The notes beneath the pieces are model-generated. The model was not told the DNA's origin. It saw only the letters and a program-made list of their open reading frames with translations, and ran no database searches. Shown piece by piece: positions 1 to 19,556 of a DNA stretch of 64,000 bases (within the stretch, counting starts at the first letter, position 1; each line of letters starts with the position of its first letter). Both the position numbers and the translations under genes were made by a program. Source of the DNA: Cladosporium halotolerans (lineage: Eukaryota); NCBI RefSeq assembly GCF_011745625.1, contig NW_027191487.1, positions 1-64,000 of the forward strand. Reading direction: 5' to 3'.

Positions 1-97
1 CTGATTGCTGATTGATTTCTGATTGAGCGCCCACCTGACTGATTTGATTCCTGATTGAGCTTCACCTGATTCTGAATATTCAAGATTCAAGATCTAT
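1..97. repeat. Short-repeat array (CTGATT x6), candidate transposon terminus; runs off the window edge
   Basis: CTGATT occurs at 1, 8, 19, 39, 51 and 66. CTGATTGAGC..CACCTGA is duplicated and TTCAAGA is tandem at 79-92. The array directly abuts the point where permease homology stops. Confidence 0.6.
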
Positions 98-743
98 GTG
101 CCAAGGCTGGATAACATATTCCGGAGATCCAAGTACAGCGAGGCCAAGTATGAGTCCCGCCTTTCCAATATGATCAGAATAGAGGTAACGGACGTAACGG
201 TGCTTTGTCTGCTTACCACGGAGAATGAGACTCCTGCAAGGAAGGTCTGCCATCCGAGTGTAATGAGCCATCCGGTGACGTAGCTGAGGAACTTTTGCCA
301 TTTTGGGGGAGCCAACTCTGACACCCAATGATACTGTCCTGTTTTCTCGTCAGAGTCTTGAAGGTCCCTATCGTCTGGCACGGCCTTCGTTTACCTCCAG
401 CCGTGGGGCTCATCGACGAGACCTCTGCCAAGCTTGCATACACCGGCAGTAGTACGAACGGGCTGAGGAGAATCCCCCAGAAGACGGCAGGCGTGCCGCC
501 ATTGGTGAGTCCAAAGGGTGCAACGATCAGCACAAACTCCCAAGCAACCATGACAGTGCTGGCAAAGCCTAACATGGTGGAGAATCTGAATTGGCGTCTG
601 AGCACTTGCTTTTTTCCCAACATCCTCATGTCATGTCGATCATATTGGGTGCCTTCATAACGTTTGCCCACTCGGCTAGATTGAGCAGTGTGTCCGCTTG
701 GTGACTTCTCGGCCTCCATAGTTGAATGTGCATGGTTCGACAT
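80..743 (-). pseudogene. Amino-acid/GABA/choline permease (APC family), 5' part only, truncated
   Basis: ATG at 743. Three exons give LRRQFRFSTMLGF, ASLAEVSSMSPTAGG|QYHWVSELAP, GWLITLGWQ and YVIQPWH. The frame then enters the repeat and stops at 80-82, with no GT donor nearby. Confidence 0.7.
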
Positions 744-1915
744 GATGCGAAGGATTGGGGCACAGAAGCGCAATGAGAGAAAAACAGCCGTCGAGAGTGG
801 CTTGCGCAGAAGAATTGATGCATGCAACGATCGAAAAGGGACGTACACCACTCGCCAAGACTGAGGACAATCTTCAACGCATTCATGAAGGCGAGCGTGC
901 ACAGGCGTGGGCTCCGCTCGGGAGCGACACCCGAGGCGCCGTATGGCTCGCGACCAAATGGCATCACCTCGTTTGCAGTAGTGTCATGTATGACAAGCCC
1001 CGGCCTCCAGCGTCAGCGCGAGAGCTCGGTTGCCGATCAACTGCGTGGAAGGTGAATGACACCTTGGCTCCGAAAGTTGCGCTTCCCGCCCGGAGATGGC
1101 TTGCAATTATGTACGATCATGAGAGAGAGCAGCCTTTCGCCCAAGCCTGTAGCGATAGTTCGAATTTTCAAGGACGATACCTGATGCTGCCGCTACAGAT
1201 CAAGCTCGTTCAAGCATGCAGGCAGCATGCGGACGCGAGATTGCGCCATATCTGGTAGACCCACATTTCGACCGGCTTCTTTCAAGCGAGCACAAGGCCA
1301 GCGTCGTCTCTGAACGATCAGGGCGGCTGCAAGCGCTAATGAGGAGCGAACGAGCGAAGGATTAGGCAAAGTGAACTAAAGCGACATGGGGCTGCGTTCA
1401 GATCCCGCGAGGAAGACGGCGACGCCCCGTGCCGAACGTCCGCCCTCCTGACGGCTCTTTTCCACAAATGTAGACACTCGTCCGAGCGAAATTCATTCTC
1501 ACGTCTAGCGCCCATCTTTCCGCTTCATTGGTTCCGATGCAGCATTGTATAACTACCAAAACTTGTCCACGGTCCAGCTACATCATTTATGCTTGGCTCC
1601 ACAAGGACTTCCGAGGTCTGTCTGTCTGTCTGTCGGGAGGATCAGCGGCTCAACGGGCAAGGGTCCCGCGCGAGCAAGGATGCCCACTAGCGATATTGTT
1701 CAAGACCCTCTCCACCAGACGCGCGATGCCATATGTGGTGTCACACGACTTGGCTACTCATCACGTCTTGACAGACCACAGCGCCGCCTCCTAGAAAATC
1801 GATCTCTGGGCGATGTTGCTGCTCACCGCGGATCTAAACATGCCTTCTTTCGTCCCAATAGGTTTTGACACACTTTTTCGTGGTTCCCCGCCTACTAAGT
1901 GCTCACAAATCGTTG

Positions 1916-3243
1916 ATGAGTGCCCTCCAAATTATGCAAGAAGTGCCACCGGGACAAGCGGCACCGTTTGTGCATGCTAGCGAAGAAGACCATCGCGATC
2001 GAGTCATCATATCAGCTGCAATCGGTGTCTCGTTCGTGCTTTTGGCTCTGGTGTCGAGGGTCATTGTGAGAAAATCAATCGTGCTGAGATGGGGGCTGGA
2101 AGACAGCGCTATTGTGCTTTCGAGTGTGAGCAATTGACATAGGCGCAAGTCTTTCGGCATAAGCTGATGCACAGGACAGGTCCTTCACTTGATTCAGTCG
2201 TCTCTGGTGATGATAGCTAGTGCCAACGGTCTGGGTGCTTCGGTCACATCTTATGCACCAGAGCAGACGAAGTTTCTACAGAAGGTGAGCTTAGAACGCT
2301 TCCCGCACGAGTTCATCTGATTGAAATTTTCAAGACCTATTACGCCAGTAACATCCTTTACGTCTTGGCTCTTGATATGTCGAAGATAGCAAGCGCTTTG
2401 CTCATACACCGTTTGACAACGCGCGACAGCCACGTGCGGCGATATAGCAGTCTGGTAGTAATCATACTCCCAGTGTTAACCATCGCTTTCACTCTTTCGA
2501 CTTCATTGCAATGCAACCTTGCAAGGCCTTGGCTTTTCGTAGGACAAACTTGCCCGCATTGGGTGTGTTTCTTCAGAACAATTTGTAATGTGGCATTGCT
2601 GACCGAACACAGTTTCTCCGTTGGAAATTCCATGCCGCCATTGCCTGCATCGCGGAATTTGCAATATTCATTGGTCCGCTGTGGATAGTGTGGCATCTTC
2701 AAGTTCCAATGCCGGTTAAGACAGACATCGTCACGCCATTCGCTCTTCGCTTGCTGTACGCTCGCTTGTTTCCCGTCAGAACTTCCGAAGATCATTGACC
2801 AACACATTCGCAGAATCATAGTACTCACTGGTCTCCGCATGCAAAGTTTCGATCAACAAGGCTTTGCGACAAAGCCTACTTTGGCTGAAGCCGAGTACGT
2901 GGCCTGGACGCAATGGGAACTCACGTTCTCGGTACTTGCCACTATCTTCCCCTCCACACGCAAGTCGTTTCTGAACCTGGTGACATACTACAACAGTGGA
3001 CACTATGCACAGAAAACAGCTTCCACAATGCCGTATGGACCCGCAGATGAGAGCATTCCCATGAAGACGTTCACGGACAGAGGTGCAAGCAGCGGTAGGA
3101 TTCTTCAACAAATTGGTGAGGATGAAGAGGATGATCATGGAAGCGAGACTTTGATCATCCAGCGAAGGAGGTCGTTTGCAGTGACAATCGATGATCCGGG
3201 TGAAAGTGACCTGGCTGTTCTTGGACCCCGTGTGGATCCGTGA
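1916..3243 (+). CDS. PTH11-like (rhodopsin-domain) integral membrane protein without a CFEM domain, multi-exon
   Basis: Spliced hydrophobic segments read VSRVIVRK..WGLEDSAIVLS, ANGLG, YYASNILYVLALDMSK, LQCNLARPW, IVWHLQVP and WTQWELTFSVLAT. This pattern is typical of the PTH11-like 7TM family. Confidence 0.75.
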
Positions 3244-3417
3244 CAGGCACTTGAAACTGACGGCATTTGAAATGCTTGACTGCAAGGACTACTTTTACTT
3301 GTACTGTAAATGACAACCTTCCCTTCCTAGCACCAAGCGTTGCATCATTCCCAATTATAATCGACCTGTCTTTCCACCAAGCTCCAAAACTTGCGACACC
3401 AAGACTTCTCTGCTTTC

Positions 3418-5565
3418 TTAAAAAAGAAGTTCTTGGTGAGGGTAGTTATGCTCCTGCTCATGCGCACGCAGCACTTGGTCAGTCTTGTCTTGACTCGCAT
3501 CGAGATGCTTTTTCGGCGTGATCAAGATGGTCTTTGCAATACTTGGCGTGCCAAACTCATCCATGACAAAGAACATCCAGTGGCCGGGAATGAGGACGCC
3601 CGGATCTTTCGGCAGCGTCACTTCGGCGATGGGGTAGGGCGCGTCAAAGAACTTATCTTCAACCTCAAGGGGAACGCGACGCTGGTCCGTATTGACGGTA
3701 TGGCTTGCACTGGAAATTCGAACCAGAGAAGCGGTCTCGACTCGATTGGTTGTCATGAACCGGATGGTACCCCCAGGGCTTGCTTTTCGAGGTATGCTCG
3801 ATCGGAAAGTAGGCCTCTTCCGCTCCTGACCCGTCTCGGTCAATAGGTAAGGAGGGGTATAGATCTGAGCGTCATAATGGTTCGCTGAGCAATTGCCGCA
3901 GAGACCGCCGCCTCCAGTCAGAACTCGGCCATCAGGCACCAAAATAGAGACGGAGTGGTAGACTCGGATCATGTTGTTTTTCTGTAGCTGCTGGAAAGTG
4001 TTTGTTTCAGGATCGTACAGCTCCGGCGTGAACTGTACATTTTCCTCGTTGAAGGCAATTCCGAATGTTTGCCCACCGTGGATGAACACTTTCCCATCTG
4101 GAAGGACCACGGACGTGTGAAAGACTCGATCAACGTGCATCTGGCCATCTTTGCCTGCCGGTTGCACGTCCGGCTTCCCTAGAGCGTCGCCCAAGGTAAT
4201 CACATGAGCGTTGGCGTGTGCCGGAGATTTATCGTAATCCGGAGAGCCACCGAACGTAAGAATCTTTCCTTCCACAGCATCAAACATGACGGCATTTCCC
4301 GACATTGAATCTTCATCTTCCAAGCGGATGCCGGCAGAGTGAACGTCACCCTCGCCTTCCACGGTGTACCAGTTCATGCTCACGCTGCGACCTGCCTGGA
4401 AGACGGTGTTATTCTTCCATCCAAAGAGCCAGCCATGATTGTCTGCCCTCCATGGGCCCTCCATGTCGTCAGTAAGCATCGGTCCAACCTTAGCACCAGG
4501 CAGAGGTGTCCACCTCTTGCTGCTCGGGTCATAAACCTCTCCGTTCTTCTCAATATTGGAGCCACCTGCCCAGGAGCCACCGATGACAAAAACGCGGCCA
4601 TCGGACAACGTCGTCTGAGCCTGGTACCCTCTCTCCGTATTCATAGCCTCAGCTGGCTCCCAAAGATCGCTTGTCGCGTTGAAAAGGCTCGTTTGGGCTG
4701 CGTCGTTGCCACCTGTGACAACCATATTGCCCGTGCCGTCAATCGCAATGCCAGGGCAAAACATGTCGTGGTGAGTATCGGTCACCACCCTTTTTGAGAC
4801 CGTGTTGGTCCTGAAGTCCCAGCGAGACATAGCCGTCTTTCCGCCAGGCGTGGAGTGGAATTCGTCTTCGTCCCATGAAGACCACAGCATTACCTGGCCC
4901 GTTGCCTCTTGCGCGCCGGCTGCAGGCACAACGGGAAGGTCCAGCGTAGGGCCCCATGCTCCTAATTTGGGATCCTGCGCAATGGTGTAGAGGTTTGCGT
5001 ACACATTGAGCTCAGAGATTCCGACCCAGGAAGAATGTTCCTCATTAGACCGAGCCACAAGACGCATGTATCGAGCTGAGGTAGGCTCGAAGGCTGCAAC
5101 ACGCTGCCTGTTGGTGGTGGGCCACATACCGTATGCAACGGGCTGGCCCCAGTGCTCAGCGTCGTTGCTGAGGTAGATCTCATGCTCAGTTATAAGGCCG
5201 CATTCGCTCTTCAAATCGATAGGCGGGAGCACAACCACTGCGCCTACAGCGTAATGATCACGGAGGTCGACGGTTATGTTTTGAGTATCCGAGAAGCCCT
5301 CGCTCTTCCATGCGGTGGTGTTGGTCCCATCGATGGCGTTCTGGCAAGTATTCTCGCCGCTGCTGCAGGTCAGAAGCCATTTTTCACGGCCCACGCGGAT
5401 GCCATTGACAGGTCTGGACTGGTCGTTGAAAATTGGCTCCCAGGAGGGTTTGTCATAGACACCATAGCCAGAAACAACACGCTCACCGCGCATTGCCTCT
5501 TTCAAGTAGGTATGCCCCGCGCTTGCGGACCCGACAAGGGCTGCATTGGCCCATCGCATCCTCAT
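3418..5565 (-). CDS. Galactose oxidase-like copper radical oxidase (CAZy AA5_2) with N-terminal CBM32/F5-8 type C domain
   Basis: The likely ATG is at 5565 (MRMRWANAALVGSASAG, signal-like). Motifs: NAIDG..TAW (CBM32), HDMFCPG (Cys of the Cys-Tyr cofactor), RGYQ (Tyr), GGSW, RVYHS (Tyr/His ligands), GGGGLCGNC and HTVNTDQRR (His ligand). The gene is intronless. Confidence 0.93.
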   Translation of the reverse strand: MRMRWANAALVGSASAGHTYLKEAMRGERVVSGYGVYDKPSWEPIFNDQSRPVNGIRVGREKWLLTCSSGENTCQNAIDGTNTTAWKSEGFSDTQNITVDLRDHYAVGAVVVLPPIDLKSECGLITEHEIYLSNDAEHWGQPVAYGMWPTTNRQRVAAFEPTSARYMRLVARSNEEHSSWVGISELNVYANLYTIAQDPKLGAWGPTLDLPVVPAAGAQEATGQVMLWSSWDEDEFHSTPGGKTAMSRWDFRTNTVSKRVVTDTHHDMFCPGIAIDGTGNMVVTGGNDAAQTSLFNATSDLWEPAEAMNTERGYQAQTTLSDGRVFVIGGSWAGGSNIEKNGEVYDPSSKRWTPLPGAKVGPMLTDDMEGPWRADNHGWLFGWKNNTVFQAGRSVSMNWYTVEGEGDVHSAGIRLEDEDSMSGNAVMFDAVEGKILTFGGSPDYDKSPAHANAHVITLGDALGKPDVQPAGKDGQMHVDRVFHTSVVLPDGKVFIHGGQTFGIAFNEENVQFTPELYDPETNTFQQLQKNNMIRVYHSVSILVPDGRVLTGGGGLCGNCSANHYDAQIYTPPYLLTETGQERKRPTFRSSIPRKASPGGTIRFMTTNRVETASLVRISSASHTVNTDQRRVPLEVEDKFFDAPYPIAEVTLPKDPGVLIPGHWMFFVMDEFGTPSIAKTILITPKKHLDASQDKTDQVLRAHEQEHNYPHQELLF

Positions 5566-7007
5566 GGTGCAGTCGAAGATTATGAGTTCACCTCCTGGCT
5601 GAAAAGAAAATCGGAAGGGTAAATGGGCAAGACGAGTCCCGAATCTTTGACTGTAGGGCACCGCATCTTTTTGGTGCACGCCGATAGCTCTCTATATACC
5701 CTTCGCTCCCGCCAGACACGGGAACGATGGTCTAAGAGCATGCTGCCCACATGACGTGCCAAAAGATCAAGCAACATGGACGGGGCCCCATCTTGTGTGT
5801 TGTCTTCTTTGGGAAAGTGGAGGCTCGAGGGCTCATGATCGCTGAGACCGTGGGGCAGGGTGACATGAGTGTATCCCAAGATCGACCCAGGCGGTGGAAC
5901 GGAAGGTATATTAGACTGCAAAGACAAGACTGCAGGATCTTAGGTACGGGCCATGGGACGGGCCTTACTTCGGCATGCCGGCACGTCCGGCGCGCGCGGC
6001 AGGTGGGTCTGCGACCTGCCAGACCCACCACCAAGGAGCACAGCCGGGTCCACTTGCAACCCAAGTTGCGGATTGATCGCCAGTGCTTACCACGCATTGC
6101 ACGCTGCGATAGCATCCGCCATGACATTGTCGCTCATACTCTGCCAAGTCCCCGGTACGGATGGCAACCAGAAGCCACCACCGCTACTTTTGTCGTTCTG
6201 CGAACGCTGCAATACGATGTGAAGACCCCGCTGGCCAGGAGCACGCATGGAACTCCCAAGGTGATTGTAGCAGCTGTGGAATGCAAAGCCCAAGTCGCGG
6301 AGCAAACTCTCAGATCGCGACTCGTTACCAATCGGTGGGTGATGTGCTGTCAACCCAGATCAACCTCTCGCAGGCAAAAAGTGGAAGGTGCGCCCCTATA
6401 CCAGCGCTTCGGCTTGCCGCCGCTACCTTGTGCATAGGTCCCCCGACCGAAGGTGGGTCGAGAGATCACCAAGGCCCAAGCGCATCTCCTCATTGAGGTA
6501 ATTCCACTTTCGAGAGCATGCCCACGCACAAGGCCGTCACCAACGTCAATCATACCATCCAGGCCAGTGAGAGACAGTGGGAACCGCGGACGTACCCCAC
6601 TATACTATCCATGTTCTGGCTGCTTTCACATATCACCCTCGATTATGATATGAAGATATAGACAGCGACGGAAAACAAGGAACGTGAGAAACATCAGATG
6701 ACGTCGGTAGCCACTCGGACCACAGTCCCTCTGAGCGGTCTGTGACATTGCTGCAAGGTGGGTATACCAGACCGGACTAGTAGCGTCAGTGATCAGCCAG
6801 ACGGACATTGAGCAACGAAGCTGTTGCATGCTAGCCGAGCCACTGGACGCGCACATGATCGGATGCGACACAAGTTCCCCTAACGCGCGACGAGGTGGGA
6901 GGCCTTTGGTCAATTTAAGGGAGAGCTCCCTTTTACTTTGTCATCTTTTCCTTGTCTCGAGTACCAGGCTTTGCAGTCTAAGGTGCTTGAGTGGCATTGT
7001 TCGCAGC

Positions 7008-8927
7008 ATGGCATCTTCAATCATCAGGAAGGCAAACATCCAGGGCGACATCTGGTAAGTCAATGCCCGTTGAATGCAATTCTCGCCCTTCCAAGAAGCG
7101 CTGATACTGACTCCACACGAAACCAGGCCCGGGCTTCCCAAACGATTCCAGTCGTTCCTATTCTTCAACATACTCAAGCCGCAGGAGTTCAAAGATCGTC
7201 TGAAGAAGTTCGCCGTAGAAGGCAACATCACATCGGCCGCACAAGCATGTGAGATGAAAGACAAGATAGCGGCGGAGAAGAAGAAGAACGAGGCTAGCGG
7301 GAGCAAAGCACCATTGTTACCTCTCCCTGGCGTGAACATCGCCTTCTCATCCACTGGACTATACAAGGTAGGACCGTCGCATCAGCGCTTGACTGGTATA
7401 GCACTGACACCATGTTGCAATATCCAGCTTGGAAAGTTTGTGCAGTTCTCCGACCAAGAAGCCGTCAAAAGGGACCGTAAATTGTCAAAGCTCTTCCGGC
7501 AGCAGCAATTGCGCGGCGGGTTGTTCGAGAAAGGCATGTTCGACGACCTCGTAAACGAGGGTTGGGACAATCCGCAAGACATCCGGGAGCAGTACCACCC
7601 TGCAGGCCCGGATGGCAAAACGCGACTTATCGACGGCGTTCTCACGGTCACTTCCAGCGTTGAATCAGACATAGCAGAGCAGATTGAGCGCGTGAGCAAC
7701 ACGTTCGTCGAAGATGGTGTCGTCTCCTTGCCCTTGAAAAGGCATGGAAAGGTGCGTCCCGAGCCCTTCAAGGGCAAAGAACAGTAAGTTGAGCAACCCT
7801 TCGATTGAGAAAAGGCCCGCGCACTGATGCGCTCTCTCTCCCACAGCTTCGGGTTTGAAGACGGGATCAGCCAACCCCAAATCAAAGGTCTAGATGATCA
7901 AGGCACTCATAGCAAAAAGCTTGGAGAAAAGGAACCGAAGCACAGCGAGCCCGGGTAAGTTGAAAGCCTGCAACCACTGCTTTCCTAGCAGGCGATTGAC
8001 TTTTGCGATCGGCAGCTTGATCTTGTGCGGTCACCAAGGCGACCCAATGAACCAACCCAAATGGGCACAAGACGGCAGCTTCCTAGTCGTGCGGGATCTC
8101 CAGCAGATGGTTCCGGAGTTTGACTCGTAAGTGCACTCCACACCGGCTTTTCCCCAAAGATGCGATCTAACTAGCCGTCCAGATGGCTCGAGACCAATGC
8201 CAGCAATGCTCCTTTTACAGAAGGACACCCCAAGCCTGCCGAAAAGCTGGCCGCCTACCTGATGGGACGTTGGAAAAACGGCACGCCGGTCGACGAGAGC
8301 CCGCACAAAGACGACGACCCAGCCTTGTACAAGTCGAACAATTTCGACTACGAGCCTCGGGACAAGCACGATCGATGCCCGTTCGCCGCGCACACGCGGA
8401 AGATGAGGCCCAGGGCGGACCTCAGCCACGACCACGCAGTGATCATTCGGCGCGGCATCCCGTACGGCCCAGAAGTATCGGAGACGGAGAGATTGGAGAA
8501 GAAGTCGGAGGAGGACCGCGGGCTGCTGTTCACTTGCTACCAGAGCGACATCCGCAATGGCTTTAACTTCTTGACGACCCGTAAGAGCAACCTCAGCCAA
8601 ACATTAGCGCATCTCGTACCGGTACACAACTGACCGCAGGTATCTTCAGGCTGGGCAAGCAACCACCATTTTCCCGACCGCAAGCACAAATTCGTCGGCG
8701 CCGCAGGCCCAGGCATCGACGCCATCGTCGGGCAAAGACTCGACCACCACCCTCCGCGCTCTATTGGGTTGCCAGACGGCAAAGACCCGACGGAGCACCG
8801 CATGGAATTGGAGAGCTGGGTCGTCCACAAGGGTGGGGAGTATTTCTTTGCGCCATCGCTCGACGCAATCACGACCTACCTCACCGGGCCAGATGATTAC
8901 GATTTTGCGCCGTCGGCGAGACTTTAG
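7008..8927 (+). CDS. Dye-decolorizing (DyP-type) heme peroxidase, multi-exon
   Basis: Spliced product: NIQGDIW|PGLPK, EH|FGFEDGISQP (GXXDG), DGSFLVVRDLQQMVPEF, GRWKNGTP, CPFAAHTRKMRPR (proximal His), IIRRGIPYGPE (distal Arg), RGLLFTCYQS and GGEYFFAPS. It ends PSARL-TAG at 8925-8927. Confidence 0.92.
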
Positions 8928-9683
8928 AATAGTGCTAGGGGGCATCAAGCTTGCCACGATTCGATTGTAGCGCGCATTGCTCGAGACAGAATTTCTTATA
9001 CTAGAATGTATGTTGAATTGGACCTGCGAAAAGGGCCGCGCATCAGTGAATCTGCAAGCCAGGAGTTGCAGGTCCTTCGAGGATCCGAGCTTTGAAGCGG
9101 AGGTCGCGGTCCGTGCAGCCGCTGCGCAACGCGCTCCATCACCGGAGGCTACTGTAGTAGGTACCTAGGTAACATCGAATGGATGCACGTTTTGCTCAAT
9201 CGTCTGTCGTTTCTCACCTCAGTTACATTGACAACGAGCAGCTTTGATGGCGACATCATGTGTCATCAGTGGCCATCCGTTGGATTTGCTGAACACCAAC
9301 GGCTGCGGCGTGGTGTCGCCAAGGGGTTTTCGCGAAGTTTCCGATACTCGAAGCCTGGAGGCTCTAAACCTCAATGAGTAAACAAATGCATCACGGGCTC
9401 ATGGGAGACAAAAGACGAATTTGTTCAACAAGGTTCTTTTGGTTCTCGTGAGGTACATAAATTCAAGCCAAGCAGAAAGCTGACTAAAAAAAAGCAGAGG
9501 CTGGTGGCTCTGTTGTTATCATAAACCATGACCCCATCGTAAGCAAGATCAGCGAAGCAGCGACCAGCCGTCAAATCTCCAGGATAGATTGCTTCTCTGG
9601 ATTGAAAAAAGGTGTCTCCAAAAAAAAAGCGTGATCAAAAGAGATCAGAAGAGAAGTGAAGTGAAAGAAGTTTGCCAGCCAGT

Positions 9684-10265
9684 TCAAGGGCAGAAGACAA
9701 CCTTGAAGTCGGCCTTGCCTTTATAGCAGACGGTGTCAGCGGGCGAGCCGTCGGCAGTCTGGTCAGGGTTGGTCCAGCCCTGGGAGAGAGCACAGTCGCC
9801 AGGCGAGCAGACCTTGCTGGGGCACTCGTCATTGGGCTCGCCGTTGACGGTCGGGTAAACTGCGAGGCCGACATCCTCCTCGGAGCCCTCCATGAGAGAA
9901 AGGTTGTAAGCGGTGCCGTCCTGGCCGGCGTACTGGGAGTAGCCGAACTCGAAGAGAGCCTGGTTCTTCCACTGGCCGGCGGTGCCCCACTCGGCGTGGC
10001 CGGAGATGCGCATGCCAATGGCCTTGAAGTCGGCGGAGACGGTCTGGGTTCCGTTGCCGGGAATGCTGACGGGACTCATCTTCTCGAGCATTTGAAAGTC
10101 GCCAGTGATCTGGTACATGCCAAAGTGCTTCTCGGAGGAGCACTGGTTGCAGATCTCGATGTTGAAGGTATCGGAGCCGGAGCTGCGCTCAACGAACCTG
10201 TTGATGGGAGAGGCTGTTGCCGTCAAGGCGAACAGAGAGCTGAGGAGCCAGCCTGCGGTGTACAT
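9684..10265 (-). CDS. Small secreted thaumatin/osmotin-like protein
   Basis: Signal peptide MYTAGWLLSSLFALTATA. The motifs ICNQC, LFEF..AYNLSLMEG and terminal FKVVFCP resemble thaumatin-fold motifs. The protein has 7 Cys, and a TATAAG lies about 200 nt upstream. Confidence 0.7.
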   Translation of the reverse strand: MYTAGWLLSSLFALTATASPINRFVERSSGSDTFNIEICNQCSSEKHFGMYQITGDFQMLEKMSPVSIPGNGTQTVSADFKAIGMRISGHAEWGTAGQWKNQALFEFGYSQYAGQDGTAYNLSLMEGSEEDVGLAVYPTVNGEPNDECPSKVCSPGDCALSQGWTNPDQTADGSPADTVCYKGKADFKVVFCP

Positions 10266-11480
10266 TTTGGTGGTAGTGAATGTGGTGGTACTGTAAAGTG
10301 GTGGTGAAAGATCGTGTGGCGGTTGCCTTTTGCAGTACAACGGTGTCTAAAGAGTGACGATGCTCAAAAAAGAGTGACTAAAACGAGAAAACGAGTATAC
10401 CTTGGTCTCTGGATCAAAGCAGAAAGCATCCTGGCAGGGAGGCAGCGAGACGACAGTTCTTATAAGGCGGGAGGCGCGAACTCCCGGAGACGGGAAACGG
10501 CGTGTGAGCCACGCGTTGCCTTTTGCAAAGAGCAAACATCGGGTACCTGAGCGGATGTGTGCCTACTAGTCGAGCATAATTGCGACGGGCCAATTGAGGA
10601 TGGAGAGTGAAGCTGCCCTCGTGGGGCCTGCCGCTGTCAACACGCCTGTCGGAGAATTTACAGCTGACGTTGAGACGAGGCGTAGTCGGATTCGGCGGCA
10701 GAGCCACGCCATCAGCGGTACGCAGGCACGTTAGCACCTGTGAATTTTCGGGGCCGCTCCTCACGTGGAAGTTCTGGACCGGGGCAAAATCGGCAGGGGA
10801 AATGATCGAGACGGGAGAGAGTTCTTGGACCCTTCGGGACTGTCGCGTGCGCTGTGTGTGGCAGTAAGGTACGAAGAGCAGAAAAGAAGCCGGAAAAAAG
10901 ATGATATTTTCGACTTGCGCCGTCCCTCCCGTGAACCAGTGTTCTCTCTTGTTTCACCTCGTCGCACTTTGCGCAAGGCTGGCGTGATGCGCAACGGCGG
11001 TGCTCGCGTGAGCGCCAACGGGCGGGTACCTGGGCTAGCACCGCAGACCGAACCATTGCCTTGGCGAGCTGGGCGGCAGTCGAGTGGTGCGGAAGGTCTC
11101 GATGAGTGGAGTCGGGTGTTTGAGGTTGAGAGGTTCCAGACTTTCCAGACCACACATACGCGCGTCTGCCGCTCTGCCGCTGTCGACGGCCCCGCGTCGC
11201 CGTTCTGCCGCCCAGCCGGATCCCCCTCCAACGGCCGCCGCGAACGTTGATGGGCTGGAACGGCCGTGGCGGCACGTTTCACGACTGTTAGCATCCCATC
11301 GCTATCCGTGGTACGAAGGAAGCAAAAGAACCTTGAGGATCCGGGTCACTGGTAACCGACCACAAGGAAGGCCATTAATAAAAGAGTCACCGCACCTTAG
11401 TCGGGGTAGCGATGCGCATGTGGTCGACTTGTGTGGTCTTCCACGAGACGATCGCACGCCGGCGCTCTTTTGTTAATCTC

Positions 11481-11489
11481 TATTATAAA
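11481..11489 (+). promoter_or_regulatory. TATA-like element about 25-30 nt upstream of the 5S rRNA gene
   Basis: TATTATAAA at -30 to -22 relative to 11511. This is the position known for upstream TATA elements of dispersed 5S genes in filamentous ascomycetes. Confidence 0.55.
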
Positions 11490-11510
11490 CCCTACAATCT
11501 CGATCCTTTC

Positions 11511-11628
11511 ACATACGACCATAGGTCAGTGAAAACTGGGCATCCCGTCCGCTCTGCCATACATAAGCACTGAACCGGGCGACTAGTACTAGAGTGGGTG
11601 ACCATCTGGGAATCCCGCCTGTTGTATG
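11511..11628 (+). rRNA. Dispersed 5S rRNA gene
   Basis: Begins ACATACGACCATAGG, contains CATCCCGTCCGCTC, TAAGC and TAGTA..GTGGGTGACCA..GAATCCC, and ends CTGTTGTATG. It is 118 nt long, its ends are complementary (helix I), and an oligo-T follows. Confidence 0.95.
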
Positions 11629-11633
11629 TTTTT
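11629..11633 (+). terminator. Pol III oligo-T terminator of 5S gene
   Basis: TTTTT immediately follows the 5S 3' end. Confidence 0.75.
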
Positions 11634-11895
11634 GATTTTCCCAGTCTTTTTGGCAATCCATTGGAACGCAAGGATCACTGCCTCTCCGTCAAGCTCTGCG
11701 CAGCGTTACAACGAGAACTTCACCATGAGAGCTTCACGGCTGTCTGCTCCACGACGCAGCACCATGTATGGAACGGAGAATTTGGTCGTGCCAAAGTACA
11801 TGGACACCCAATTCGAGACTACAACGCGCTCCAATCCAACTTTCGCCTCATCCACTACAATACACGACTTCATCTACCCAGACTTTTCATCCAGC

Positions 11896-12830
11896 TCAGA
11901 CGTTGATCTCATGCATCCAGACCTCTTGCTCCGCCCTCGCACTAAATGTACTGATCCTCAAGATATCCTGCATCTGCGCATTGCTCACAAATAGCACATT
12001 CCTGGCAATGAAGAACCGGATCCCCTCGCGACAAGGCGGGCTGGTAAGGCTGCCACGATAAGTCCACATCTCGCGGAAATCGCCCGCCTCTCGCAACGCT
12101 GCTGCCGGAGTGGACATGCCGGTCATGCGGGTGTCGGTGTTGTTGAAGTTGGGGAAGAGCTGGCTTCCACCGGTGGTGTCGCTGTTGGAGCTGTTGAAGG
12201 GAGCCTGGGCGAAAAAGTCCGAATAGCTCAGGATGCCCGGGTCGATACGGATAGCGAGGACGGCGCGTTCCAGGCCATTACGGTCGAGGTGAACGAGGTG
12301 GAGTTCAGCCTTGGAGCGGTCCTGCTGAACGGAGTGGTCGGCGGGGGTGTGGACGTGCCATCCTTGGAGGTAGACGGTCTCGTTGATGCCGTTCTCGTCG
12401 AAGGTGAAGTTGGGAGCGTTGAAGTCGACAGTGCAGTTGACGGCCGTGGAGCCTTGGAGGCAGTTCTCATTGTCCAGGCGGAAAGCTGGGCCATAGCCCC
12501 AGTTGTAGTATTGTCCACTGATCTCGCCGGAGTAGTTGAGTCGAGGGATGTGCGCGGTTGATAAGCCTTGCTGTAGATTCAGAGGGATCGGAGCCTGCTG
12601 CATGCCCGTCTGACATAGCTCGTAGTCTTCGGAGAGTTTGCCCCAGTCTTGGCTTTCATCGTAGGACCAAACTGTCACCGATCAGAAACATGGACCGGTA
12701 TCCACATTGCTCCTCCGTAAGTCTTACCAGCACCCCCCGTGGCTCTCTTGTGCAGCTGGTAGGTAGGACCTTCGCATGCAAGCGCCGCTGCTCCGAACAG
12801 GGCGACGCGCTTGAGAGAACTGACAGCCAT
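11896..12830 (-). CDS. Secreted alpha-class carbonic anhydrase (1 intron)
   Basis: Exon 1 is MAVSSLKRVALFGAAALAC..KRATGGA, spliced to VWSY. Motifs: CQTGMQQAPI, WHVHTPADH and ELHLVH (Zn ligands), and YRGSLTSPPCREG. Confidence 0.9.
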
Positions 12831-14310
12831 TGAGTGTGATTGTGATTCAGCAGTTGGTGCTGCTCCGTGTTGGTAGGTCGGAGAGAGCTCAAGTGGCAGG
12901 AATAGAAGTGCCCAGTGAATATGGATTCAACAAACCAAACTGGCGGCACTTTATAGAGCTGCGGTATTTTGAGGTCGTCTGCTACAGCGTGTACCAAGGC
13001 TCCGACCCCAAGGTCGATGCGGTACTTCATTCTGGACAAGCAGACCAGGCGGCCTTGGAACAACTGCGCCTCGCGGTGCTTGCCGGGTGCACAGTGTTGA
13101 TTTGTATGGTGCGAGTCAGCCGTGTTGGAAATTCCGGGAGGGCTCATTACTTAGCCTTCGCGCATAAAGACTGCAGCGGCAGCTAGGAAGAGTAGCGGAA
13201 TGAAGCGGGACCTGTATAAGTCACGCCCCGATCTCCATTCCTTGTTCACGGGCAGCATAGCAATCGGGATGGATTGGATCCATTTCGACCAAGCTGGTAG
13301 GTAATCACAAACTTCCTTCACTTGATAACGTTCATCCAAGAAGAAACGTCTTTTCGGCGTGCACGTAACAGCATCGCCATCCGAGCAAGAAGCCTGGCCT
13401 ACCAGTGACCATGCCCAAGCCTTGAAACATGCTCAGGCTACGCACAAGATTCTCTAGCACATGAGAACGACGCCCAACTGCTCATAGCGGCGGTATGTGA
13501 CGGGATGAAGTCTGCTTGGCAAAAGTGCGGAGCGTGAAGGCACGCGCCAGTTCCCGTGGCGGAGCAGCTTTCCAAGGCACTTCCCCAGACACATTCGCGT
13601 CTTGGCCTCAAACTCCTTCCGCCCGGCGTGCCTGGATCCTTGATCCGGGCGCGTTCGCAATGATGGCTTTCACTTGGCGTTCGAAGACTCCAGAGCCATG
13701 AAAAACGCTCCGCCGGTGGCTGAATGCATTGCGAGAATGTTTCCGGCTCTTTGAAGTCGCCACAATACGTCCTCGCGCCAGGTGCCGAGGTCTGTCGCAG
13801 GCCTGATCCCGCTCGTCTGCAGCGCCTCGCACCGGAAGGTCAGACAGGCCATCAAAAAAGTAGAGCATCTATCTAGATCTCTCCAGGAACGCATGTCGTT
13901 GCCTTGTGATGTTTGACATGCAAGGCTTTGACTGTAATGTAAACCGTTTCCGTCTCTACCGCCGTATCATTGACACTTGCCCACGATATATAGTCTATTA
14001 CAGATCAGCAATGGCCTCAGCAGTGGGAGAATCAATTTCTTAGGGGAGCCGTTACGGCCTGTGTTTCAACGACGAGCAGGCAAAAAATGCGCTCGCTACT
14101 AAAGGCAGCGCACTTCGTGGCCATGCATCAGGCTTCGCCGCAGCTCACGCCGCAATCCCACCAGTTACGCCACCATCGACCATTTTCAGGTGAGGCTGAA
14201 GCAGCCTTGTCATCACTATATGAACATCAGAATACCGACGTGGGTCTACGCCTCTAGTCCACGCAAGACACGCCAGACAAAATCTCCGCCTTAACGGCAA
14301 CCTGCGATCG

Positions 14311-15948
14311 ATGGGCATTTGGAGCACAACCATGGCACCTGCCCAGAACTTCACTATACCATCCGGATGGACTGACCACGGAGTGAAAGGTCTTGTTTGC
14401 AGGCCAACGGATTGGACGACAATGGCAAGCTTTTTCATCTCGAACTACATCGCTCATGCGTTTACCATCAAGAAGACGCCAGGTCAATCTACCGCCAATT
14501 ATGTGGCAGCCATGTTCATAGCATTTTGTTATCCTTCGTTTGGTGTCTCACGTGCGTTGGAAACGCTGATCTATTGCACCGTATTGCCTTTTTGCGACAA
14601 GCCTGATGGACTGCAACAAGCGCGAGAAGACGATGCGCTGTGCATGCTCGTCCGGTCTAGGACCTGGAAGCCCCGACAAGGAGATATACTACTGCAACTG
14701 GTTGATAATGCAAGGTATGACCTTGGCATCCCAGTGCAAGCCCGAGAAACCGGTGCCTCCAAGTACAAAATCTATAGTCCGGACTACCTTCACCGAGCGG
14801 CCAAAGGTTCGGGCTCATTCGATTCGATCAAGGTCTCCCTAGCCCCTGTTGGGCGTGGGCGCTCGATACATGGCATACATGAACTACCACCGGGCGGGGA
14901 GTACGAATTTCTCATCGTTCCGGTCAATGCAGAAGTTCATCCCCTTCATACCCAAGCGGGTGATCTCGGTGGGCCATGCAAGCCGATGGCGGCTTCGAAG
15001 ACTGCCCTGCCGGTCTTAATCGCGCTCTACCAAATCTGCTATGGAAGTGTCTCTCTTTATCGTGCTCGAGGAGATCAAGTCGATCTATATGGATATGCCG
15101 CTTTCGGTCTGACGGTAATTCCGTACGTCCTCATGGCAGTCATCAATCTGCTAGTGCAGCTGTTGTCGAACGATTACCCCGACCTGTACATGATCCACAC
15201 ACTGGAAATGGATGAAGCTATAAAGCGCGGCGGGCGCTTTGAAGGAGTTGTGGGAACCGTGCATCCACCTGAAACCCAAGATCCGGATGACAACGATGTG
15301 TTAGAAGAGAGAGAAGACATCCCCGTACAATGGTGGAAGGTAATGTCTACTTCAGTGGCTGACAACCGGGAGCTTTTCACGCTTGAGAGAAGCGGCGGGC
15401 GATATGAAATTGGTCCAGAAACGATTACTATTACCCAAGAGACGGGCAATGGCAATGTTCGACAGCTCAGTGCCCCAGACCTCACCATTCCCTGCTTCTC
15501 GGACTTCCCTCGGCGACGCCACCGGAGAAACGGACCTCTGTTCTGCAACGATGCTTACGAATCGTTTAACGGTGAACCTAGCGCCAGGCTTGTCGGCTTC
15601 CTGGGCCAAGTATATGGCTCCATTCTCATCAATGGTATATCAATCGCCATAAATGCCGCTGTCAGCCGTTTCCGAAACGGTACCGATTCGATTCGATTAC
15701 AACGCGTATTCATTTTGACCTGGATAGTTTGGAATTGCATCTACGGCCAATTCGGAGATCTCATCTTGAGGTTATGGACGGTCTATTCTCATGCGTACTC
15801 GCGGTCGAGCTCAATCCTGGACAAGACGTTTGTTCTGTCACGAGCCTTGCTTTTCCACGCGGTTTGGTTCTTACCCGCCATAGGCGGTATGGTGATCGCA
15901 GGCCTTGAAATGGGAGATTACGGATCTTGCATCCGCATCGCGACATAA
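14311..15948 (+). CDS. Uncharacterised multi-pass membrane protein (start may be 14332)
   Basis: 545-aa intronless ORF. Hydrophobic segments include FFISNYIAHAFT, YVAAMFIAFCYP, GYAAFGLTVIPYVLMAVINLL and FLPAIGGMVIAG, separated by long soluble loops. No family recognised. Confidence 0.75.
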   Translation: MGIWSTTMAPAQNFTIPSGWTDHGVKGLVCRPTDWTTMASFFISNYIAHAFTIKKTPGQSTANYVAAMFIAFCYPSFGVSRALETLIYCTVLPFCDKPDGLQQAREDDALCMLVRSRTWKPRQGDILLQLVDNARYDLGIPVQARETGASKYKIYSPDYLHRAAKGSGSFDSIKVSLAPVGRGRSIHGIHELPPGGEYEFLIVPVNAEVHPLHTQAGDLGGPCKPMAASKTALPVLIALYQICYGSVSLYRARGDQVDLYGYAAFGLTVIPYVLMAVINLLVQLLSNDYPDLYMIHTLEMDEAIKRGGRFEGVVGTVHPPETQDPDDNDVLEEREDIPVQWWKVMSTSVADNRELFTLERSGGRYEIGPETITITQETGNGNVRQLSAPDLTIPCFSDFPRRRHRRNGPLFCNDAYESFNGEPSARLVGFLGQVYGSILINGISIAINAAVSRFRNGTDSIRLQRVFILTWIVWNCIYGQFGDLILRLWTVYSHAYSRSSSILDKTFVLSRALLFHAVWFLPAIGGMVIAGLEMGDYGSCIRIAT

Positions 15949-16311
15949 ATTAGGCGGTCGCCAGAATTGTCACAAGAGAAGCTATCAAAATTTCTTGCTT
16001 GTCCCGCGAAGATTCTCAGCGGCTCACTGACCAAATTTAGACGTTGGCCTGAGAAATAGTAGCTCTCTATACTTTGACTACGCACGAGATGAGTCTGATC
16101 TGCGGCGAAGCAGCGTGCTAAACGCACGCAATGTATGATGAAATATGTGAGCATTCCTCATATTGATTCGTATAAATCCCATCTTGCAGAGCCACCTCGC
16201 TCGTCATCGCCCTCGTAATGACTTTTTGGGTGCTTCTTGGTCAGATACAGAATGCTAAGAAGCGACATAGATGGATGCACATGCCCAATCAGTAGATGCT
16301 TGTTCACCTTA

Positions 16312-17850
16312 TCACCTCTCTTCATCGCCAACCACCTTGATCTTATGATGCAAATCTCCCTCCGCTCTCTCCGGGAGCCACCTAACACTCACATTCAGCA
16401 TCACCGCCATAGCTATTAAGATGATCCAGCCGAGTTGACCATGCAACCAACCGCCTTTGATGCCAAGAGCGTACAAGCTCGTCATGCCGACAGGAGCCAC
16501 AGCTCTCAAACCACTGTTGACGGTCAAAGCAACAGCATTCAGCGTGGCAAGTGTTCCAGGGCTCGGCGCAACATCGTTGAGACAAAGCTGCACGCAGGCA
16601 AACGACATCGCAACTCCGCTGCCGAAGAACGTGCAGACGGCACCCAGAGTCCAGAAAGCGGCCTGCAGATCGGCGCGACGCAGCTCATTGAGGATAGGAT
16701 AGCAGGCCATCATGAAGGGCCACGCGATACAGCAGCCGCGGAGGACGGTGCCGGTGCTGGTGCGCCGCTGCAGGTATGGGAAAGCCAGCAGCATCCACAG
16801 CGCCTGGCTCGCGCCGGCTAGAGCAAGAGCGAGAGAGATAAGTTTCGGTGAAAAGCCCAAACCGCCCAGGTGGATAGGGGTGTATTGCGCGACGGGGTTG
16901 ACGGCAGTGTAAGCAAGGGCCTGCAGCATCACGTGGCTGTATATATATATGACGATTGCGATGCCCGGTGCCTTAAGCAGCTCCCGGGTGGTCGTTTCCG
17001 GCGGTGGCGGTCCCGCAGCAGAACTCCTGCTCGGCAATGTCTCGTCAAGACAGAAGTAGCTTACGATTGCCGTGCTGAGGCAAAACGCGCCAGATACAAA
17101 GCCGGGTAAAGCGTATGGATATTTTTCAAAGAAACGGACATCCTGGAAGATACTGTACTGAGAAGCTGGGTTCGCCAGAGCACCACCGAGAGCAGGTCCG
17201 AAGAATATGCCGAGATTCCTCGCGAACATGAACCACCCGAAAGACTTCGCTTGCGTCGCCTTGGTGCTGTTTTCGCTCAGCATTGCACGTATGGTGACTG
17301 AGCTTCCGGCGAATAGACCAGCCAGGCATCGGAAAACGATCATTTGCCAAAGAGTGGAGCTCAAGCCGAACAGCGCTGACGCGACCGCAATGCCAGCCAA
17401 GGAAAATACCAAGACTGGCTTGCGACCGAGACGGTCAGCTATCCGGCCATACACTATGATCAGCAGCATCTGGACGAGCGAGAAAAGGGATTCGATGGTG
17501 CCCGTCCAGAACCCGACGTTCTGGGGAAGCTGGTGACCAACCCGCTCGACCATTTCGTTGATGTATGGGAAGATGATGAAAAAGGCCACAGGCTCGACAA
17601 CGCTGGCATAGCATAGCGTTAGGATCTGCCAGTGTGGAAAGTCTTTTTCCTCGTCGATGCTGTTGCTGGCTCTATGCGATGGAAGTTCCGCTGATGATGA
17701 AGACTTTGCACCATCCCCATCTTCTGATGTGGCCGAAACCGTTTTGCTGCTAGATGGCCTGTCCGAGGTGGACAACAGGGGCGCTCTCTCGTCTGCAACA
17801 TCCTCTGAGGCTGTCCTTCTCTGAGCTCGTGGATGGTTGTGCGTGGACAT
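16312..17850 (-). CDS. MFS transporter (ZIFL/tetracycline-exporter-like)
   Basis: About 12 TM segments, MFS motif A (YGRIADRLGRKPV), FRCLAGLFAG, and an N-terminal ERAPLL dileucine-like sorting motif. The first ATG is at 17850; 17868 is TTG. Confidence 0.88.
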   Translation of the reverse strand: MSTHNHPRAQRRTASEDVADERAPLLSTSDRPSSSKTVSATSEDGDGAKSSSSAELPSHRASNSIDEEKDFPHWQILTLCYASVVEPVAFFIIFPYINEMVERVGHQLPQNVGFWTGTIESLFSLVQMLLIIVYGRIADRLGRKPVLVFSLAGIAVASALFGLSSTLWQMIVFRCLAGLFAGSSVTIRAMLSENSTKATQAKSFGWFMFARNLGIFFGPALGGALANPASQYSIFQDVRFFEKYPYALPGFVSGAFCLSTAIVSYFCLDETLPSRSSAAGPPPPETTTRELLKAPGIAIVIYIYSHVMLQALAYTAVNPVAQYTPIHLGGLGFSPKLISLALALAGASQALWMLLAFPYLQRRTSTGTVLRGCCIAWPFMMACYPILNELRRADLQAAFWTLGAVCTFFGSGVAMSFACVQLCLNDVAPSPGTLATLNAVALTVNSGLRAVAPVGMTSLYALGIKGGWLHGQLGWIILIAMAVMLNVSVRWLPERAEGDLHHKIKVVGDEER

Positions 17851-18400
17851 CTCACGAGAAAGCGGCAACGAGTTCTGGATCCGCTCGCACAGGTCCCGAG
17901 GACATGGATTTGAGCCCAGAAATGAGATTCGTAGCGATGGGACTTAGTTATGCCTCGAAAGAGTGGCTGTGCCAGACAGGAAGGGTCGGTTGTCAATGGC
18001 TGGGTGGGCTGTCGCGGCACGCAAGCGAGCAATCAATGTAAGCCACGGCCACGGCAGTGCATGAGAGACGGCGAAATCACTGGAAGCACTTCCTGCTGCG
18101 GTGGAACAAGGACATAGACTCCCGTCGGAGGATTTTGTCTGGAACTTGCCCCCGGAGAAACTCCCCATTCAGGCGCAGTTTTGCGGGTTCGAAGACAACT
18201 GCACGCAAAGATTGCGGCCTCACATTCCAGGTTTCCACCTTCCTTGTTGGGAAAGAGACGGATGCCGCAACGGGCCCTGGCTGCCTGAGGCCCAAATATC
18301 TGGAGAAGGGCCGACGGCCGAGCCTGAGCCTGGAATTTTAGGAACTCGCCTAGCGCGCTACCTGAATGGAACAAATCAAACCTGCCCAACAGAACACAAG

Positions 18401-19294
18401 ATGTCTGAAGACGCAGCACCCACGATCTCGCGAAAGGAGAAGCGCGCTCAGCGCGATGCCGAGCGTGCCAGCAAATTCCAGCGCAGTAAGAAGAGAAAGG
18501 TCGAGGACGAGCCCGCACAGAATGAAGATGGCGCCGAAGTGAAGGACGACCTGCAAAAGGACTTCATAGCACTCCCCGAAGCCGATGCCGATGCGACTGG
18601 AACGGAAGCTCCCTCGGAATCCAAGAAGCGGAAAAGGTCGCAGCAGGAGCCCGCCGCAGAGCAGGAAGAGACGACAGCATCGACAACGGCGACTGCGCCC
18701 GCTCCCAAAAAGAAGCGCAAGGCGAAGTCTGAAGGAGCAGACGGCGAGAAACAGCCTCCCGCGAACCAACGCTTTATCGTTTTCGTAGGAAATCTTCCAT
18801 ACAGCACGACAGACGATTCGCTGCAGATTCACTTCAAGAGCTTACAACCCTTCACGCTGCGACACCGCACAGATCCTAAGACGAAGAAGAGCAAAGGCTT
18901 CGCATTTCTGGAATTCGAGGGCTACGATCGCATGAAGACCGCACTGAAGCTCTTCCATCACTCATATTTTGACCCCGAAGCACCGGAAGGCCTGAAGGCG
19001 CAGGAGCCTGAGCCGCAACCCAAGGGTTTTGGCAGAGGAAGGGCGAAGAAGCCGCAAGGCCGGAAAATCAACGTGGAGCTCACGGCCGGTGGAGGTGGAG
19101 GCAAAGACAATAGAAAGGAGAAGATCAGGGTGAAAAACGTGCGACTGGAGGAGCAGAGAGAACGTCGGGCTGATTTTGAGAAGAAAGAGAAGATGAGGCA
19201 GGAACGTAAGGAAGGCAAACAGAAGGGCGAGGCGGCGCCAGCGGCTGCAGAGATGGAAGGCATACATCCTAGTCGTCTGGCAAACATGCGATGA
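18401..19294 (+). CDS. Nucleolar RRM protein (Nop6-like)
   Basis: RNP2 (FIVFVGNLPY), RNP1 (KGFAFLEF), RKINVELTAGGGG, K/E-rich tails and terminal GIHPSRL. The ATG at 18401 is the likely start. Confidence 0.85.
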   Translation: MSEDAAPTISRKEKRAQRDAERASKFQRSKKRKVEDEPAQNEDGAEVKDDLQKDFIALPEADADATGTEAPSESKKRKRSQQEPAAEQEETTASTTATAPAPKKKRKAKSEGADGEKQPPANQRFIVFVGNLPYSTTDDSLQIHFKSLQPFTLRHRTDPKTKKSKGFAFLEFEGYDRMKTALKLFHHSYFDPEAPEGLKAQEPEPQPKGFGRGRAKKPQGRKINVELTAGGGGGKDNRKEKIRVKNVRLEEQRERRADFEKKEKMRQERKEGKQKGEAAPAAAEMEGIHPSRLANMR

Positions 19295-19556
19295 TGTGAG
19301 GATACTGAGTGGTGATGAGAAGCGAGGTTTTGGTATTGTGTACATTGCCCTTTTCAAGGCTTGTAATATTGCGCGAGAAATGCGCGCTGAGATTTACGCA
19401 CTTCACACCGCCATTGTCATGGAAGCGGATATCTCCACTGCATATCCTAACCCTACTTTACAGTGCAACAACTCTCGTAACTCTCGTGCCCTCGGGTATG
19501 CATCGTCCACCAGAATGCCTTGAAAACATTATCGTACAGTGTGCCTCTCTATTCAA

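Follow-up and report, generated by a model that had tools for sequence, protein, structure and literature searches.

We describe a divergent gene pair in a 64,000-nucleotide stretch of the Cladosporium halotolerans genome (contig NW_027191487.1, positions 1 to 64,000, hereafter the window). One gene encodes a copper radical oxidase (CRO) related to galactose oxidase and lies on the minus strand as an intact, intronless open reading frame (ORF) of 715 aa (3418-5565, ATG at 5565). The other encodes a DyP-type peroxidase (DyP) and lies on the plus strand (7008-8927), with seven exons comprising 1539 nt, an ATG at 7008 and a single, terminal TAG stop at 8925-8927, giving a protein of 512 aa. The catalytic residues are intact in both. 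A sequence-only reading had already described a galactose-oxidase-like gene and a DyP gene, both intact and diverging from about 1.44 kb, and its coordinates and spacing agree with the ORF, the exon model and the RNA contigs. The features of the locus are as follows.

3418..5565, minus strand: CRO coding sequence, AA5_2 (ORF, Pfam, PDB match and an unspliced RNA contig spanning 3300-5652)
5515..5565, minus strand: signal-peptide-like N-terminus, CRO residues 1-17 (orthologue comparison)
5416-5514, minus strand: stretch between the signal-peptide-like start and CBM32, CRO residues 18-50 (clade alignment)
5008..5361, minus strand: CBM32 (F5/8 type C), CRO residues 69-186 (Pfam PF00754, E 1.3e-17)
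3517..4965, minus strand: Kelch propeller and E-set catalytic region, CRO residues 201-683 (alignment to 1t2x and 6xlt)
5566..7007, no strand: shared divergent upstream region, 1442 bp from ATG to ATG and 1310 bp between the mapped mRNA 5' ends (5653-6962)
6963-7007 and 7008-7054, plus strand: DyP 5' untranslated region (UTR) and exon 1 (spliced contig X15 starting at 6963; joint 7053/7126 in 2 runs)
7127..7367, plus strand: DyP exon 2 (RNA joints; Pfam DyP_N)
7428..7783, plus strand: DyP exon 3 (RNA joints)
7847..7954, plus strand: DyP exon 4 with the GXXDG motif (FGFEDG, residues 216-221, nt 7848-7865; RNA joints and motif position)
8016..8126, plus strand: DyP exon 5 (RNA joints)
8183..8580, plus strand: DyP exon 6 with proximal His H358 (8391-8393) and distal Arg R377 (8448-8450; Pfam Dyp_perox_C)
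8650..8927, plus strand: DyP exon 7 with the C-terminal ARL (8916-8924) and the TAG stop (8925-8927; joint 8580/8650 in 4 runs)

To the CRO, Pfam assigned an F5/8 type C domain (CBM32, PF00754), Kelch repeats and a GO-like E-set domain (PF09118), and its top match among solved structures was Fusarium galactose oxidase (1gof), aligned over the full length with an E-value of about 1e-200. Alignment to 1t2x and 6xlt equates C270, Y314, W332, Y536, H537 and H622 of the CRO with C228, Y272, W290, Y495, H496 and H581 of galactose oxidase (GalOx). These six residues, which make up the Cys-Tyr cofactor, the copper ligands and the stacking Trp, were invariant in the alignment of 13 clade members. The enzyme thus carries the cofactor pair, the copper ligands, the W290 equivalent and the Kelch propeller with E-set by which AA5_2 was recognised, together with the CBM32, which is optional in that family. 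Of the pocket residues that mark canonical galactose 6-oxidase specificity in FgrGalOx, F194, R330 and F464 are retained, and E369, W372 and D445 stand at GalOx Q326, Y329 and Q406. The seven pocket positions tabulated in PMC11267884 accordingly read W F E W R D F in the CRO and W F Q Y R Q F in FgrGalOx, and the former combination occurs in none of the characterised enzymes in the examined parts of that table. Two further observations concern the ends of the protein. Residues 18-50, some 33 residues, are well conserved in the clade (A24, R29, S32, G33, D38, P40, W42, P44, F46 and S50 are invariant) and lack a counterpart in the alignment to the Fusarium precursor; a propeptide peculiar to the clade is one possibility. 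Beyond the E-set domain, the C-terminal tails differ among lineages.

The DyP contains the Pfam domains DyP_N and Dyp_perox_C, and its family profile matched fungal D-type DyPs (7anv with E 2.7e-120; also 2d3q and 4au9), so that, judged from its profile, it is a DyP-type peroxidase of fungal class D. The columns of H358 and R377 were invariant in both DyP alignments (A3 and A4). We take from the DyP literature that the Asp of the GXXDG motif, the proximal His (H358) and the distal Arg (R377) are the catalytic residues.

The gene models were compared with RNA contigs from four metatranscriptome runs belonging to four studies, a material whose depth cannot rank expression. Spliced DyP contigs and unspliced CRO contigs were present in all four runs. 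All six DyP introns appeared as GT..AG joints at the modelled borders, three of them in 4/4 runs, two in 3/4 and the first in 2/4, and the 3' UTR extends to at least 8987, contig X15 covering 8650-8987 with 0 differences. In one run the contigs stop at 5652 (CRO) and at 6963 (DyP) and continue in adapter-like loose letters, which places the mRNA 5' ends 87 nt and 45 nt before the respective ATGs. The sequence holds no ATG between 5652 and 5565, and the RNA contigs contain no hidden upstream exon for either gene. The stretch 5653-6962 is uncovered by RNA contigs, and absence of a transcript there is uninformative. A 233-aa ORF inside the intergenic region had no Pfam match, and neither tblastx nor blastn detected intergenic conservation against 13 related loci. 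A GATCGAC / GTCGATC element, often in the form TGATCGACAT, occurs at 5880-5890 of the window and in the intergenic regions of loci L001, L002, L005-L008 and L019. GATCGAC was present in 7/8 core intergenic regions (and in L019), 320-620 bp upstream of the CRO start; as a shared promoter motif it is a weak candidate, 12% of shuffles also reaching 7/8.

The arrangement is not confined to the window. Homologue lists and cluster look-ups gave 13 named species in which the locus tags or accession numbers of the CRO and the DyP directly follow one another: Monilinia laxa, Sclerotinia nivalis, S. sclerotiorum, Cadophora gregata, Neurospora crassa, Geosmithia morbida, Paecilomyces variotii (many strains), Penicillium malachiteum, P. 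thymicola, P. verrucosum, P. verhagenii, Aspergillus alliaceus and A. avenaceus. They belong to the Leotiomycetes, Sordariomycetes and Eurotiomycetes. In about 10 further species the two proteins come from contigs of identical length, which is indirect evidence of linkage. The nearest named relatives of the window proteins are from Dothideomycetes (a Cladosporium DyP with 74% identity and a Cercospora CRO with 72%). A metagenome scan yielded 80 loci with CRO relatives, of unassigned taxonomic origin. At 10 of the 11 loci in which the CRO was at least 60% identical, a DyP lay upstream on the opposite strand with a gap of 860-1940 bp; the eleventh had no upstream DNA. The DyP was thus head-to-head at 10/10 assessable close loci, or 7/7 after merging of apparent duplicates. 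Four more distinct metagenome lineages with CROs of 44-48% identity also had a DyP, three head-to-head and one co-directional. When positions 1-20000 of the window were compared with 13 linked loci by tblastx, conservation was confined to 3459-8941, which indicates that the unit consists of the two genes and is neither a syntenic block nor part of a larger cluster. A wider conserved cluster was looked for in the flanks of these loci and rejected, none being found.

Phylogenetic trees place the linkage in one part of each family. In a tree of 194 CROs, all 33 DyP-linked rows fell inside one clade of 117 (support 84), in which three assessable members were unlinked; at assessable CRO loci outside this clade a DyP was found at 0/21. 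Likewise, a single clade (69 of the 115 rows in the DyP tree, 99*) held the CRO-linked DyPs. The CRO clade splits into A (88 rows) and B (22 rows), and this split is mirrored in the DyP tree (A, 46 rows; B, 23 rows). P. verhagenii has one A pair and one B pair. Evidently the two genes have been duplicated, or have diverged, together. Adjacency by chance or as an assembly artefact, a reading to which we give practically no credence, is refuted by these data: 13 named species and all ten assessable close loci have the two genes side by side, and the 21 assessable loci of other CRO clades do not. The adjacency is far beyond chance.

The clade-B partners have peculiarities of their own. In P0225, P0227, P0231-P0233, P0235, P0239 and P0242, GXXDH replaces GXXDG and the His and Arg are retained. 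In these partners an acidic stretch of about 30 to 45 residues is inserted immediately past the proximal-His motif, some have extensions of more than 200 residues (722-760 aa in total), and precomputed Pfam annotation gives them DyP_N only.

Orthologues of the pair are co-regulated. The N. crassa orthologues NCU09209 (gao-1) and NCU09210 (dyp-type peroxidase) stand side by side among the ADA-6-dependent, conidiation-induced genes (PMC6468284), and over the eight RPKM (reads per kilobase per million) conditions tabulated there their log2 values correlate with r = 0.976, an optimistic figure since the table was pre-selected for differential expression. Both genes respond to deletion of pac-3 (PMC6738131, PMC7355564). 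NCU09209 is cited (from Ao et al. 2016) among 19 conidia-specific cell-wall proteins with a conidiation-specific promoter (PMC7355564), and NCU09210 is found among tabulated whole-cell protein measurements (PMC5117620). In S. sclerotiorum, a study of August 2026 (PMC13610856) reports SsAA5d (sscle_15g102370) in head-to-head orientation with SsPX1 (sscle_15g102360), which it terms a "predicted peroxidase"; both genes are up in infection and in old mycelium, and knockouts of either are less virulent. SsAA5d, which is P0048 of our CRO set, shares 62% identity with the window CRO. P0152, the DyP of S. sclerotiorum, shares 60% with the window DyP and has the accession just before that of SsAA5d (APA15466 / APA15467; SS1G_13391 / SS1G_13392), and from these consecutive accessions we infer that SsPX1 is the DyP orthologue. 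The sequence-only reading had asked for linkage in other species and for co-expression, and both were borne out, the former by the 13 species and the close metagenome loci, the latter by the Neurospora values. NCU09210 also appears under the label 'iron/lead transporter' among genes up under phosphate starvation in N. crassa (bioRxiv 10.1101/2025.04.07.647663). This name is a transferred label and not evidence of transport. Its source is probably the bacterial EfeB-type DyP classification.

With regard to location, the two proteins are predicted to part. Signal-peptide and PTS1 (type 1 peroxisomal targeting signal) calls were made by inspection of hydrophobicity, motif offset and C-terminal tripeptide. 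The CRO orthologues begin with M-K-L/V-x-W, followed by a hydrophobic run and a small-residue end, and the best 8-residue Kyte-Doolittle core reached at least 1.6 in 64/71 homologues (median 1.99). Cysteine pairs are invariant among the aligned orthologues. The signal-peptide-like N-terminus and the cysteine pairs together suggest that the CRO is exported. Piggy-back import of the CRO into peroxisomes was considered and rejected in view of these cysteine pairs and the CBM32, and by-eye inspection of the CRO N-terminus revealed no PTS2-like motif. The window DyP has 9 residues ahead of the conserved NIQGD motif. This offset has a median of 8 residues in clade A and 12.5 in clade B, with a maximum of 16 among the 63/69 rows in which the motif was located, compared with 33-73 residues in five basidiomycete DyPs of the same tree. 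The DyP is therefore predicted to lack a signal peptide and to be intracellular, either cytosolic or peroxisomal. Its C-terminus, -ARL, fits the PTS1 pattern [SAC][KRH][LM], and the RNA contig gives the same end, so a peroxisomal location may be predicted for C. halotolerans. PTS1-like ends (AKL, SKL, SKM, SKI, ARL) occur in 13/46 clade-A DyPs, spread over several subclades, in 0/23 of clade B and in 0/46 other DyPs, as well as in 2/9 distinct metagenome loci. A limited literature search found no description of peroxisomal DyPs in fungi.

A functional CRO-DyP module is likely. The form of it that we prefer, if with slightly less than even confidence, is a conserved and co-regulated module in which a CRO directed to the wall produces aldehyde and H2O2, and an intracellular DyP expressed along with it uses the peroxide or removes it. 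It would be an old two-gene redox module of the Pezizomycotina, in which a CBM32-bearing CRO of the galactose-oxidase type and a class D DyP diverge from a common region of about 1.3 kb and have been passed on, and even duplicated, together. The CRO would enter the secretory pathway and reach the cell wall or host glycans, where it would oxidise galactose-type primary alcohols to aldehydes and release H2O2. The DyP would remain inside the cell, in C. halotolerans in the peroxisome as its -ARL end suggests. Because the DyP is predicted to be intracellular, the two would be linked by co-expression and by diffusing H2O2 (for its consumption or for self-protection) or else by a small oxidised product, and not by contact between secreted proteins of the Colletotrichum kind. 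A role in the maturation of spore walls or infection structures is suggested by the induction of the orthologues at conidiation in Neurospora and in infection in Sclerotinia.

Several points weigh against this reading. The locations of both proteins in this clade are predictions, and the hydrophobic core at the N-terminus of the window CRO is weak, 1.43 against the median of its homologues. Thirty-three of the 46 clade-A DyPs, among them those of Neurospora and Sclerotinia, lack a PTS1, which means that the peroxisome is not the general address of the clade. The Neurospora correlation is flattered by its source table, as stated above, and in S. sclerotiorum other studies give differing time courses, the DyP being up at 6-12 hours post-inoculation on chickpea and the CRO at 48 hours post-inoculation on B. 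napus. Short compound appressoria were seen only in the peroxidase knockout of that species (PMC13610856). The trees were built with FastTree only. Cercospora kikuchii and Pseudocercospora fuligena each have a CRO orthologue (P0007, P0010) but no DyP counterpart among the matches listed, which may reflect loss or a gap in annotation. Finally, a dedicated DyP kept beside each CRO paralogue would also fit a specific partnership between the proteins.

This last point leads to an alternative in which the DyP is the natural activator of the CRO, performing the one-electron oxidation of the Cys-Tyr-Cu site directly and consuming H2O2 in the same compartment, as a third convergent version of such a system. 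We regard it as rather unlikely; it nevertheless remains a serious rival, because each CRO paralogue has retained its own DyP. The head-to-head layout, its conservation, co-duplication with fidelity to the partner and the co-expression of the orthologues all agree with it, as do the reduced virulence of both S. sclerotiorum knockouts (PMC13610856) and the finding that a Colletotrichum CRO requires protein contact with its natural peroxidase for activation (PMC12951238). The Neurospora and Sclerotinia DyPs, lacking a PTS1, are also compatible with it. A leaderless DyP would, however, need an unconventional route to the wall: no leader precedes NIQGD in the clade A and B DyPs (at most 16 residues in the rows with the motif), the window mRNA has no upstream exon that could supply one, and the -ARL end, with its PTS1-like equivalents in clade A, points to the peroxisome. 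Direct extracellular activation is thus at odds with the predicted locations of both proteins, and the knockouts of S. sclerotiorum differ in their appressorium phenotype. A complex prediction with residues 204-686 of the N. crassa CRO and the full DyP returned "no answer" with a score of 0.00 and counts neither way. The two genes might instead share nothing but a bidirectional developmental promoter that is hard to break, with no biochemical coupling between oxidase and peroxidase. The differing predicted compartments and knockout phenotypes would suit such an arrangement, and intergenic conservation went undetected by tblastx and blastn, with just the weak 7-mer in common. We nonetheless think it improbable, since the pair persists in three named classes and in Dothideomycete-like loci while all flanking genes differ, since both duplicates retained both genes, and since an H2O2 maker beside an H2O2 user parallels two other CRO-peroxidase systems.

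The neighbouring ORFs of the window encode a eukaryotic-type alpha-carbonic anhydrase (11896-12681, minus strand), a major facilitator superfamily transporter (16312-17943, minus strand) and an RNA recognition motif protein (18065-19294, plus strand); they are unrelated to the pair and not syntenic in relatives. An ORF of 193 aa at 9684-10265 (minus strand) has a hydrophobic N-terminus, several cysteines and no Pfam match, and may encode a small secreted protein; it is not kept beside the pair elsewhere.

That a CRO can have a peroxidase as its neighbour is already known, and an orthologous pair has been described genetically in one species. What the present analysis adds is the assignment of the partner to the DyP family, how widespread and how old the pairing is, the co-duplication of the pair, its restriction to the CBM32 sister clade of classical galactose oxidase, and a predicted mismatch of compartments that includes a PTS1. 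The sequence-only reading proposed a fungal version of such a module with the DyP as activator or H2O2 consumer, and this interpretation is partly supported. Galactose-oxidase-type enzymes are a textbook case and an industrial catalyst, yet their physiological role and natural activator are open questions. With a DyP that has stayed beside the oxidase for hundreds of millions of years, and has duplicated with it, there is a concrete candidate for the partner, open to testing in Neurospora, which is tractable and not pathogenic. By our inference, the peroxidase that the 2026 Sclerotinia study left as "predicted" would be re-labelled as a DyP. On that view, unrelated peroxidases would have been paired with CROs on at least three separate occasions, and a predicted intracellular and partly peroxisomal DyP beside a predicted secreted CRO presents a topological puzzle. 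In its boldest form, which we put forward as doubtful but worth stating, the DyP would be the dedicated natural redox partner of galactose-oxidase-type CROs throughout the Pezizomycotina: a unit that predates the split of the four classes, duplicates together, is convergent with the Colletotrichum AA2 and Streptomyces DtpA systems, and serves conidial-wall maturation and infection either across compartments, with H2O2 connecting an oxidase in the wall to a DyP in the peroxisome or cytosol, or through unconventional export of the leaderless DyP.

Among known systems, SsAA5d/SsPX1 of S. sclerotiorum is the closest, being orthologous to the window pair and likewise head-to-head, and its paper was the only one on a fungal CRO-DyP pair that turned up. 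The remark that no such pairing was known to be described in fungi consequently no longer holds: the orthologous pair has been reported, with knockouts, though the DyP family goes unnamed there, "DyP", "dye-decolor" and "heme" having 0 occurrences in the text (PMC13610856). In that text SsPX1 is likened to the tandem peroxidase of Colletotrichum, and it holds neither a cross-species survey nor a statement on secretion of SsPX1. The S. sclerotiorum DyP ends in -PLI, which is not a PTS1, whereas the window DyP ends in -ARL.

The Perox-AlcOx pair of Colletotrichum and Magnaporthe is also an AA5_2 CRO with a haem peroxidase, head-to-head, conserved, co-expressed and involved in plant infection (Bissaro et al. 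2022, PMC9770985). The window pair shares with it the conserved head-to-head layout and the co-expression. The Colletotrichum peroxidase belongs to the plant-peroxidase superfamily (hybrid B / AA2-like), whereas the partner in the window is a DyP; the Colletotrichum CRO is an alcohol oxidase (AlcOx; W290F, F194W) without CBM32, whereas the window CRO keeps W332 and F236 and has a CBM32 (PMC9770985). According to the authors, peroxidases of the Colletotrichum type were never found with other CRO types (PMC9770985). The window pair thus has neither an AA2/hybrid-B peroxidase nor an AlcOx-type CRO, nor are both its proteins predicted to be secreted. The likeness to the Colletotrichum alcohol oxidase seen in the sequence-only reading did not hold, the enzyme being a CBM32 oxidase from the sister clade of Fusarium galactose oxidase. 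Nor is a co-secreted activator of the Colletotrichum or Streptomyces kind predicted, the DyP having no recognisable signal peptide and ending in -ARL, with PTS1-like ends in 13/46 of clade A.

Fusarium graminearum GaoA (1gof / 1k3i) has the three-domain architecture and all copper and cofactor residues in common with the window CRO, which is about 50% identical to Fusarium homologues. Fusarium galactose oxidase forms a sister clade, its 18 Fusarium and Ilyonectria rows lying outside the DyP-linked clade, and no Fusarium DyP was found among the 121 DyP matches listed. The window CRO has, unlike Fusarium galactose oxidase, the conserved stretch of about 33 residues before the CBM32. On its sequence, the window CRO is thus placed in the CBM32 sister clade of Fusarium galactose oxidase and not with the alcohol oxidases.

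In Streptomyces lividans, the galactose-oxidase-like CRO GlxA depends on the DyP-type peroxidase DtpA, and the system is linked to hyphal or aerial morphogenesis. GlxA is membrane-associated and has no CBM32 (PMC6519835), whereas the window CRO has one. DtpA is exported by the Tat pathway, according to a title in the reference list of PMC6519835, which mentions DyP solely in a reference; the fungal DyP shows no export signal. The two peroxidases belong to different DyP classes, the fungal one being D-type. Both systems nevertheless combine a CRO with a DyP and are tied to morphogenesis, the N. crassa orthologues of the window pair being induced at conidiation.

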